A stretch of DNA of 20,629 bases from assembly GCA_964016885.1 (NCBI GenBank), contig CAXHJY010000737.1, positions 1 through 20,629 on the forward strand, written 5' to 3'. Positions 10,238-11,760 of the stretch are shown piece after piece; position 1 is the stretch's first letter, and each line of letters opens with the position of its first letter. The notes beneath the pieces were generated by a model, which did not search any database, was not told the DNA's origin, and saw only the letters and a list, made by a program, of their open reading frames with translations. The DNA comes from Eledone cirrhosa (lineage: Eukaryota). The position numbers and the translations under genes are program-made.

Positions 10238-10632
10238 ATTTTCCCATCCTAGGGCTAAACGTCCCAGGAACGACAAAATATACAACCTCCTGCCAGCTAA
10301 TAAAGGTCTGAAAGGTCGTAAAAGTGACCCGTATGTAAACTGGACCGAAGTAAAAGCGGGAAAATCAAAGACTTGCTGTCTACAATTACTACTAAAGAAA
10401 TAGCAGCCTAGTAAAGCAACAGATTTGTTCTCAACGGACGGAGAAAAAGGTATAAGTTAATATGTCCAGGGATACTAGGTACCCCTAGAAATACATAGGT
10501 TGTCTATGATTCAGGGTTGTTCAATGGTGTTAATTTGATACACCAGAACTTTAATATTAAGATAAGCAGAACAAGTAAAATTCAATCAATTTTTCAAAAT
10601 ACATTAAAAAATATAATATAAATATTTACCTC

Positions 10633-11287
10633 TATATTATATTTTTTAATGTATTTTGAAAAATTGATTGAATTTTACTTGTTCTGCTTATCTTAATATT
10701 AAAGTTCTGGTGTATCAAATTAACACCATTGAACAACCCTGAATCATAGACAACCTATGTATTTCTAGGGGTACCTAGTATCCCTGGACATATTAACTTA
10801 TACCTTTTTCTCCGTCCGTTGAGAACAAATCTGTTGCTTTACTAGGCTGCTATTTCTTTAGTAGTAATTGTAGACAGCAAGTCTTTGATTTTCCCGCTTT
10901 TACTTCGGTCCAGTTTACATACGGGTCACTTTTACGACCTTTCAGACCTTTATTAGCTGGCAGGAGGTTGTATATTTTGTCGTTCCTGGGACGTTTAGCC
11001 CTAGGATGGGAAAATGCTTCTCTGATGAGCTTTGGTTTTCCATCATGAATCCATCGGATTTATGAGGTTTTACAAAGCGAAACTGATCAGTAAGGGCCAC
11101 TAGAAGAGGTAAATATTTATATTATATTTTTTAATGTATTTTGAAAAATTGATTGAATTTTACTTGTTCTGCTTATCTTAATATTAAAGTTCTGGTGTAT
11201 CAAATTAACACCATTGAACAACCCTGAATCATAGACAACCTATGTATTTCTAGGGGTACCTAGTATCCCTGGACATATTAACTTATA
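10633..11287 (+). repeat. Inverted (fold-back) arm of array A, ~1.35 units
   Basis: Reverse complement of array A beginning immediately after ..AATATTTACCTCT; ends ACTTATA running into TA tract. Confidence 0.95.
11016..11097 (+). ncRNA. Type I hammerhead ribozyme, family A copy 5 (in inverted arm)
   Basis: CTGATGA 11022-11028; stem II GCTTTG/CAAAGC plus inner TCATGAATCC/GGATTTATGA; GAAA 11079-11082; CTGATCAG; GTA cleavage triplet 11090-11092. Confidence 0.88.
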
Positions 11288-11628
11288 TATATATATATAT
11301 ATATATATACATATATATATATATACATATATCCATATATATATATATGTATACATATATACATATATATATATATATATACATATATATATATATATAT
11401 ACATATATCCATATATATATATATGTATACATATATACATATATATATATATATATACATATATATATATATATATACATATATATATATATATATATGT
11501 ATACATATATACATATATATATATATATATATACATATATATATATATACATATATATATATATACATATATATACATATATACATATATATATATATAT
11601 ATATATATATATATATATATATATACAT
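11288..11628. repeat. (TA)n microsatellite interrupted mainly by CA (opposite polarity to other tracts)
   Basis: TATACATA units rather than TATGTATA. Confidence 0.97.
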
Positions 11629-11760
11629 TAGAATTCCGAACCCTCTATTAGGTTGATGCAAATGCCACAGTTGGGTCTATCGCATTTAACCCACAGTAAT
11701 AAAATGCGATAGACCCAACTGTGGCATTTGCATCAACCTAATAGTGGGTTCGGAATTCTA
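11629..11760. repeat. 59-bp inverted repeat (11629-11687 / 11702-11760), 14-nt spacer, 1 mismatch
   Basis: TAGAATTCCGAACCC...CGCATTT versus AAATGCG...GGGTTCGGAATTCTA. Confidence 0.95.

Follow-up and report, generated by a model that had tools for sequence, protein, structure and literature searches.

EN+ Penelope-like elements typically carry a head-to-head inverted duplicate of their 5' end with short palindromes at the junction. They insert into AT-rich or (TA)n targets, and their two outer ends have differing end points (PMC3846280, PMC8557442). Self-priming has been proposed for the head-to-head junctions (PMC3846280), and the formation of the tandem and inverted ends has been called undefined (PMC8557442). 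Multicopy insertions are described for non-autonomous Penelope-like families of Chlamydomonas (PMC8557442, PMC9977147). In insertions made by the R2 protein, cDNA snap-back has been observed directly, often after full-length cDNA: the cDNA 3' end primes on the cDNA, and the antisense piece is joined to the upstream target (PMC11371274). In the 5' inversions that L1 makes by twin priming, the inverted segment derives from sequence that lies upstream of the break, and the breaks differ by 1-10 bp (PMC11702581).

Non-LTR retrozymes are non-coding tandem units of less than 1 kb with one type I hammerhead per unit and a palindromic helix III, found in genomes that also hold Penelope-like elements (PMC7229834; bioRxiv 10.64898/2026.07.22.740005). 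A link between retrozymes and Penelope has already been proposed (bioRxiv 10.64898/2026.07.22.740005). In 2014, hammerhead pairs 100-700 bp apart on opposite strands were ascribed to truncated Penelope-like elements (PMC4209133).

Here we describe a stretch of 20,629 nt from Eledone cirrhosa (contig CAXHJY010000737.1; the window), which consists mostly of (TA)n tracts with retroelement inserts between them. Three of these inserts, the tandem arrays A and B and the Penelope-like fragment C, have inverted arms. They share the structural features of EN+ Penelope-like elements listed above, and A and B share those of non-LTR retrozymes. Unlike EN+ Penelope-like elements, A and B encode nothing, and the inverted arm of C is without the element's 3' end. 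The end offsets of 103 and 54 nt (A, B) compare with 30-40 nt in those elements. Inverted arrays are unmentioned in the main texts of the two retrozyme sources. A literature search, with supplements and most subscription papers outside its scope, found no report of fold-backs in animal retrozyme arrays.

Architecture of the three inserts

The features are as follows; arm geometry, arm identity, hammerhead strand and domain content are direct observations.

8614-10633, minus strand: long arm of array A, a 485-nt unit x4.2, copies 100% identical, one type I hammerhead per unit
10621-10632: spacer of array A, 12 nt unpaired in the fold-back
10633-11287, plus strand: short arm of array A, inverted duplicate, 655/655 identical
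11016-11098, plus strand: type I hammerhead A, with its CUGAUGA core at 11022, a long helix II and a palindromic helix III; cleavage predicted after 11092
11288-11627: (TA)n tract between A and C, the sole long tract of the window interrupted mainly by C, not G
11629-11687, minus strand: short arm of insert C, 59-bp inverted duplicate of 11702-11760, 58/59 identical, 14-nt spacer
11688-12220, plus strand: insert C, a 5'-truncated Penelope-like element with CX4CX2C linker, GIY-YIG domain and stop at 12101-12103
16621-18364, minus strand: long arm of array B, a 486-nt unit x3.6, one type I hammerhead per full unit
18153-18365: spacer of array B, 213 nt
18365: junction T of array B, a single extra nucleotide matching neither arm
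18366-18871, plus strand: short arm of array B, inverted duplicate, 505/506 identical
18563-18605, plus strand: type I hammerhead B, with its core at 18569 and a palindromic helix III; cleavage predicted after 18599

The long arm of array A holds four hammerhead cores and that of array B three, all on the minus strand; the cores of both short arms are on the plus strand. The long arms end 12 nt (A) and 36 nt (B) short of the hammerhead cut site. T10633 is the single nucleotide common to both arms of A. The outer ends of A, at 11184 and 11287 (the latter equal to 10802 in unit coordinates), each overlap the TA target by 4 nt, an overlap of at least 4 nt being possible at 10 of the 485 positions of the unit. 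In B the overlaps are 0 and 2 nt, the 2 nt at the outer end of the short arm.

Each unit of A and B has the CUGAUGA core, helix II, GAAA, a palindromic helix III, a GUA cut triplet and helix I. Rfam gave no hammerhead match for A and a weak HH9 match for B (E 0.041, 18.5 bits, below the gathering threshold of 52), so the assignment rests on the motif and on variation. None of the 40 variants listed (of 84 found in other sequencing runs) falls at the 11 core positions of A, and a paired change at 11086/11087 in reads of these runs preserves the palindrome. Unconstrained minimum free energy folds of the A and B monomers contain no hammerhead fold, as expected for a dimer-type ribozyme. With 36% GC, no LTR and, as the longest frame of at least 80 aa within the units, an 83-aa stop-to-stop frame in A, the arrays appear to be non-coding, low in GC and LTR-free, as retrozymes are. 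Having at least two tandem units, each with a complete predicted type I hammerhead, they would be of the non-LTR retrozyme type. Family A is also dispersed and multi-copy, a property established for this array only: it occurs in 17 contigs of run X1 and 309 of run X2, and the head-to-tail joint of the unit in two X1 contigs, 106 X13 reads and 83 X14 reads. Exact patterns were searched for as well, that of hammerhead A in viral contigs and that of hammerhead B in prokaryote genomes, with no match in either. Rfam on the whole window returned, among 150 of 313 matches listed, only sub-threshold miRNA-type hairpins, which we reject.

Two observations concern the stretch downstream of hammerhead A. 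At 11098, in 31 X13 and 20 X14 reads, the stretch downstream of A's cut is preceded by a 5' part that is hammerhead-like but different. Another family thus appears to share the segment 11098-11190, which is AT-rich and a candidate for a signal that the helper protein recognises. By eye, 11108-11190 begins with the word AG/GTAAAT after the hammerhead and reaches, about 80 nt on, a pyrimidine run and AG. It is possibly a small intron like that in Penelope pLTRs.

Insert C reads from 11690 to 12100 as a GIY-YIG domain (PF01541, E 1.3e-6, above cut-off). Its right limit, 12220, is the next TA run and not an established 3' end. The CxxC before YIGQT and two later histidines are invariant in an alignment of relatives, and with the two cysteines inside the core the domain is of the CCHH type of EN+ Penelope-like elements. 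The Neptune and Nematis clades are defined by a CX2-5CxxC motif in the RT-EN linker and a C-terminal EN (PMC8557442). C has CX4CX2C at the start of its frame and a stop after the EN, which is the Neptune/Nematis layout. Its closest match, P0001 (63% identity; one of two among 47 candidates), carries this domain downstream of an RT. P0001 has a Glu before residue 1 of C's frame, a place taken in the window by a stop. T11687 is therefore probably part of the inverted arm, leaving the C junction without overlap. The outer end of the short arm lies mid-ORF with a TA overlap of 2 nt, unlike the usual inverted pLTR of Penelope-like elements.

C is not shown by its sequence to be the helper of A and B, because the arrays share nothing with its 3' region and no hammerhead lies there. 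We found no hammerhead core on either strand of 11628-13300, the 3' region of C, whose 3' end may be lost or elsewhere; nor are A and B similar to insert C itself, to this region or to the Penelope-like loci L001 and L002. In L002 the Penelope-like RT/GIY-YIG frame lies at 1753-3126. Its contig, 3.4 kb long, was assigned to a bacterial MAG but is probably DNA of an animal host. Relatives of C number one locus in metagenomes and one in a MAG, both 32-34% identical and uninformative, with no inverted repeat and no match to the window; viral contigs held none.

The junctions, their neighbours and other copies

All three joints are head-to-head, with arms of 655, 506 and 59 bp, spacers of 12, 213 and 14 nt, junction homology of 0-1 nt and outer ends in (TA)n. 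A preliminary description of this DNA had placed the junctions at 10633 in A and at 18365 in B, both with minus sense, and a 59-bp inverted copy just upstream of the truncation of the plus-sense GIY-YIG fragment. Arm coordinates and hammerhead strand bear this out for A, as do the end of the long arm at 18364 and the start of the short arm at 18366 for B, and the 58 of 59 matching positions for C. It had called these structures fold-back inversions at the 5' end. The geometry and the strands hold, but the structures are inverted duplications, not inversions, and '5' end' has to be taken as head-to-head rather than tail-to-tail, each short arm being itself sense. Nor is the fold-back shape tight in B, with its 213-nt spacer. 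The repeats themselves are far beyond chance; their shared side is not, three of three by coin toss being 1/8.

The window offers some comparisons. LINE copies at 6501-7743, 13359-13639, 14808-16373 and 20451-20629, 97-99% identical and all between TA tracts, have an RVT_1 frame (with a profile match for one) and a short tandem 3' tail. We take this LINE to be CR1-like. Its copy at 6501 has a stuttered 5' junction (6460-6500). None of the three copies with visible 5' ends carries an inverted arm; the fourth runs off the window. Three of three Penelope-related inserts against none of three LINE copies gives p = 0.05 by Fisher's test; against none of five it is 0.018, and against one of five, when the RTE-like copies are counted and one is scored as inverted, 0.071.

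The element at 3484-4990, presumably RTE-like and non-autonomous with a C2H2-like remnant, is in three pieces: plus 3484-3872, inverted 4223-4387 and a diverged plus piece 4390-4990. The inverted piece is a 165/165 copy of 3708-3872 across a TA tract and stands head-to-head with 4390-4990. As a self fold-back of the latter it is rejected, being 90% identical to that neighbour as against 165/165 elsewhere. The pieces stem either from two young insertions that are identical or from the priming of two RNAs at a single site. A short unique insert at 7939-8156, which we take to resemble the 3' end of a LINE-related SINE, has no inverted arm in self-comparison.

Nearly all long (TA)n tracts of the window have G interruptions on the plus strand. 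The tract 11288-11627 has an internal duplicated motif and looks inverted relative to the others. It is not a copy of A's left flank, since the longest shared run, 45 nt, is shorter than in unrelated tracts. The pair X1/X1' is likewise rejected as a fold-back through its TA tract, since G occurs in both tract halves.

The four other sequencing runs (X1, X2, X13, X14) consist of short-read contigs and reduced-representation reads that sample few loci, possibly of another species, and are no test of this locus. No strand-switch joint is listed among the 17 + 309 contigs and 370 + 299 reads aligned to unit A. Since RAD depth at the junction position is about 45-67 in each raw-read run, fold-backs at that position are not common in the sampled copies. 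Three of the 24 loose ends of unit A listed (of 93) run into TA-type sequence, at 11186, 10802 and 10799, all within 3 nt of the two outer ends of array A. The first is in 60 X13 reads, whose flank is unlike that of the window and which probably represent one locus; the second is in one X2 contig, and the third in 14 X14 reads with an agreement of 0.65. Loose ends at 10869, 11156 and 11203 (at AATT sites) and at 11206, with agreements of 0.37-0.51, are set aside as library artefacts. In X2, summed contig depth is 5- to 15-fold higher at 11107-11191; we do not read this as a copy number, since summed depth is none and related families share this stretch.

How the inverted arms may have formed

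The explanation we favour for A, B and C, with somewhat better than even confidence, is target-primed reverse transcription followed by snap-back of the cDNA 3' end onto itself. Each insert would result from a single retrotransposition into (TA)n. The tract would be nicked, and RNA copied from the nick, by an RT/GIY-YIG protein of Penelope-like type, acting in trans for A and B. For A and B the template would be a multimer or a circle, giving the several identical units of the long arm; in A we take this arm to be the first-strand cDNA product. Copying would end, a little ahead of the ribozyme cut site in the case of A and B, whereupon the cDNA would fold back and its free 3' end prime DNA synthesis on the cDNA itself. 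This synthesis, by the RT or by a host polymerase such as Pol theta, would yield the short arm, which would be joined to the other target end at a TA overlap. It is the template, the enzyme and the order of these steps that we infer.

Snap-back is favoured because in all three inserts the short arm is shorter than the long arm and contained in it, because it starts 12-14 nt from the long arm's end in two of the three, A and C (about 0.01 under independence, post hoc), and because the arm of C ends mid-ORF and is a duplicate of sequence downstream of the break, an outcome not given by twin priming of the L1 type. If snap-back holds, the long arm would be the RNA-templated one, as the short arm always lies inside it. 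The arms of A would share one source, since they are 100% identical while most copies of the family are below 99% (187 of the 995 records in other runs reach 99+% identity). Counted from the cut, the long arms of A and B start at positions 13 and 37 (joint probability about 0.006 one-sided, 0.02 two-sided, post hoc), which suggests, from these two cases, that copying stalls at or near the cleaved 5' end.

Against snap-back stand the junction homology of only 0-1 nt, the 213-nt spacer of B, the fact that there are three events, all from one window, and the lack of a strand-switch joint among the 326 contigs and 669 reads listed on unit A. Moreover, the short-arm end of A at 11287 is not a random exit, since one X2 contig and 14 X14 reads enter TA there.

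The last point bears on the main alternative, which we consider unlikely though of appreciable weight. The Penelope protein might nick both target strands and prime a cDNA from either one, with two preferred start sites on the RNA, and the 3' ends of the two cDNAs would be joined head-to-head; A would mimic a fold-back, both cDNAs stopping near the ribozyme-cut 5' end. The Poseidon protein of Anolis cleaves both strands, extends each of them and has two start sites (PMC11167929). Such dual priming would fit the 5' ends of A's two arms, which begin 13 and 26 nt after the cut, and the clustering of TA-joined loose ends at A's outer ends; two contigs, X1-6 and X2-16, likewise break off at 11184. 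Overlap alone does not explain the recurrent ends, since TA-type suffixes form five clusters in the unit. However, only 24 of 93 loose ends are listed, RAD coverage varies, and the X2 contig may itself derive from the locus described here. Nor does dual priming sit well with C, whose 59-bp arm ends inside the ORF and 14 nt from the long arm's end, or with B, where the start of the short arm is 253 nt past the cut. Between the two outer ends the difference is +103 nt (A) and -54 nt (B), as against the 30-40 nt tail of Penelope-like elements. The recurrent outer ends of A are compatible either with dual priming or with a snap-back product that was then cut at a preferred site.

Rearrangement at the DNA level after insertion, in which a break in the insert or next to it is repaired by fold-back synthesis aided by self-complementary (TA)n and without a retroelement enzyme, is improbable. 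The inverted RTE-like piece, a perfect copy across TA, does mean that non-Penelope inverted copies occur here, and the inverted look of the tract at 11288-11627 would also fit. Yet the three junctions lie at insert 5' ends and not in TA, the outer ends abut TA with flanks that are not mirrored, and no LINE copy with a visible 5' end carries such an arm.

Slighter still is the chance of a library or assembly artefact, be it phi29 or fold-back chimeric reads or mis-assembly of repeats. Amplification chimeras are perfect mirrors with a short loop. The arms of A are just that, and the junction is not seen in the four other runs, but these sample few loci as short-read contigs and reduced-representation reads. 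The arms of B and C each differ by one substitution, all arms are bounded with flanks not mirrored, and the joints, each within a Penelope-related insert, are all head-to-head, which is reported to be the commonest orientation (PMC3846280). Twin priming of the L1 type, similar in its inverted 5' segment and outer-junction microhomology, is rejected, because the arms duplicate 59-655 bp of the long arm as against the overlap or gap of 1-10 bp expected (PMC11702581).

Implications for retrozymes and Penelope-like elements

The preliminary description had also held that inverted 5' segments are common in Penelope-like insertions, and this is indeed their known typical structure (PMC3846280, PMC8557442). 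From the shared junction it went on to link the non-coding arrays to the Penelope RT/GIY-YIG machinery. A Penelope helper is likely, because of the Penelope-type hammerheads, the (TA)n targets and the published proposal of the same link. The junction is no proof of it, because snap-back 5' junctions are also found with the R2 protein (PMC11371274), which differs from the present case in being an engineered system in human cells with an rDNA target and a linear template. The fold-back signature is not Penelope-specific. What we have is a known Penelope-type end structure, real, on new retrozyme families, and the three events are a lead, not a result.

A more specific scheme can be suggested, doubtful as it may be: the Penelope RT could write retrozyme arrays in one step round circular or multimeric RNA, starting at two fixed sites, in A about 92 and 195 nt after the cut, stopping just before the cut site and switching to its own displaced cDNA. 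If this is true, retrozyme arrays that are young and identical would record in many copies how the inverted ends of Penelope arise. Tabulating their junctions would then put the rolling-circle model to the test and identify the helper, with no need for an in vitro system. Retrozyme fold-backs also offer a cheap genome-wide test of snap-back against dual priming.

Judging by the arms, read-through transcripts would form a stem of 655 bp in A, one of about 506 bp closed by a 213-nt loop in B and one of 59 bp in C. A hammerhead within such a stem would probably be unable to fold. If transcribed, the long perfect hairpins, which the preliminary description named as possible siRNA or ADAR substrates, could feed small-RNA or editing pathways. 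Mobilisation of animal retrozymes by Penelope-like elements has so far rested on co-occurrence and pLTR similarity; head-to-head ends on retrozyme arrays are a third, structural line of support.
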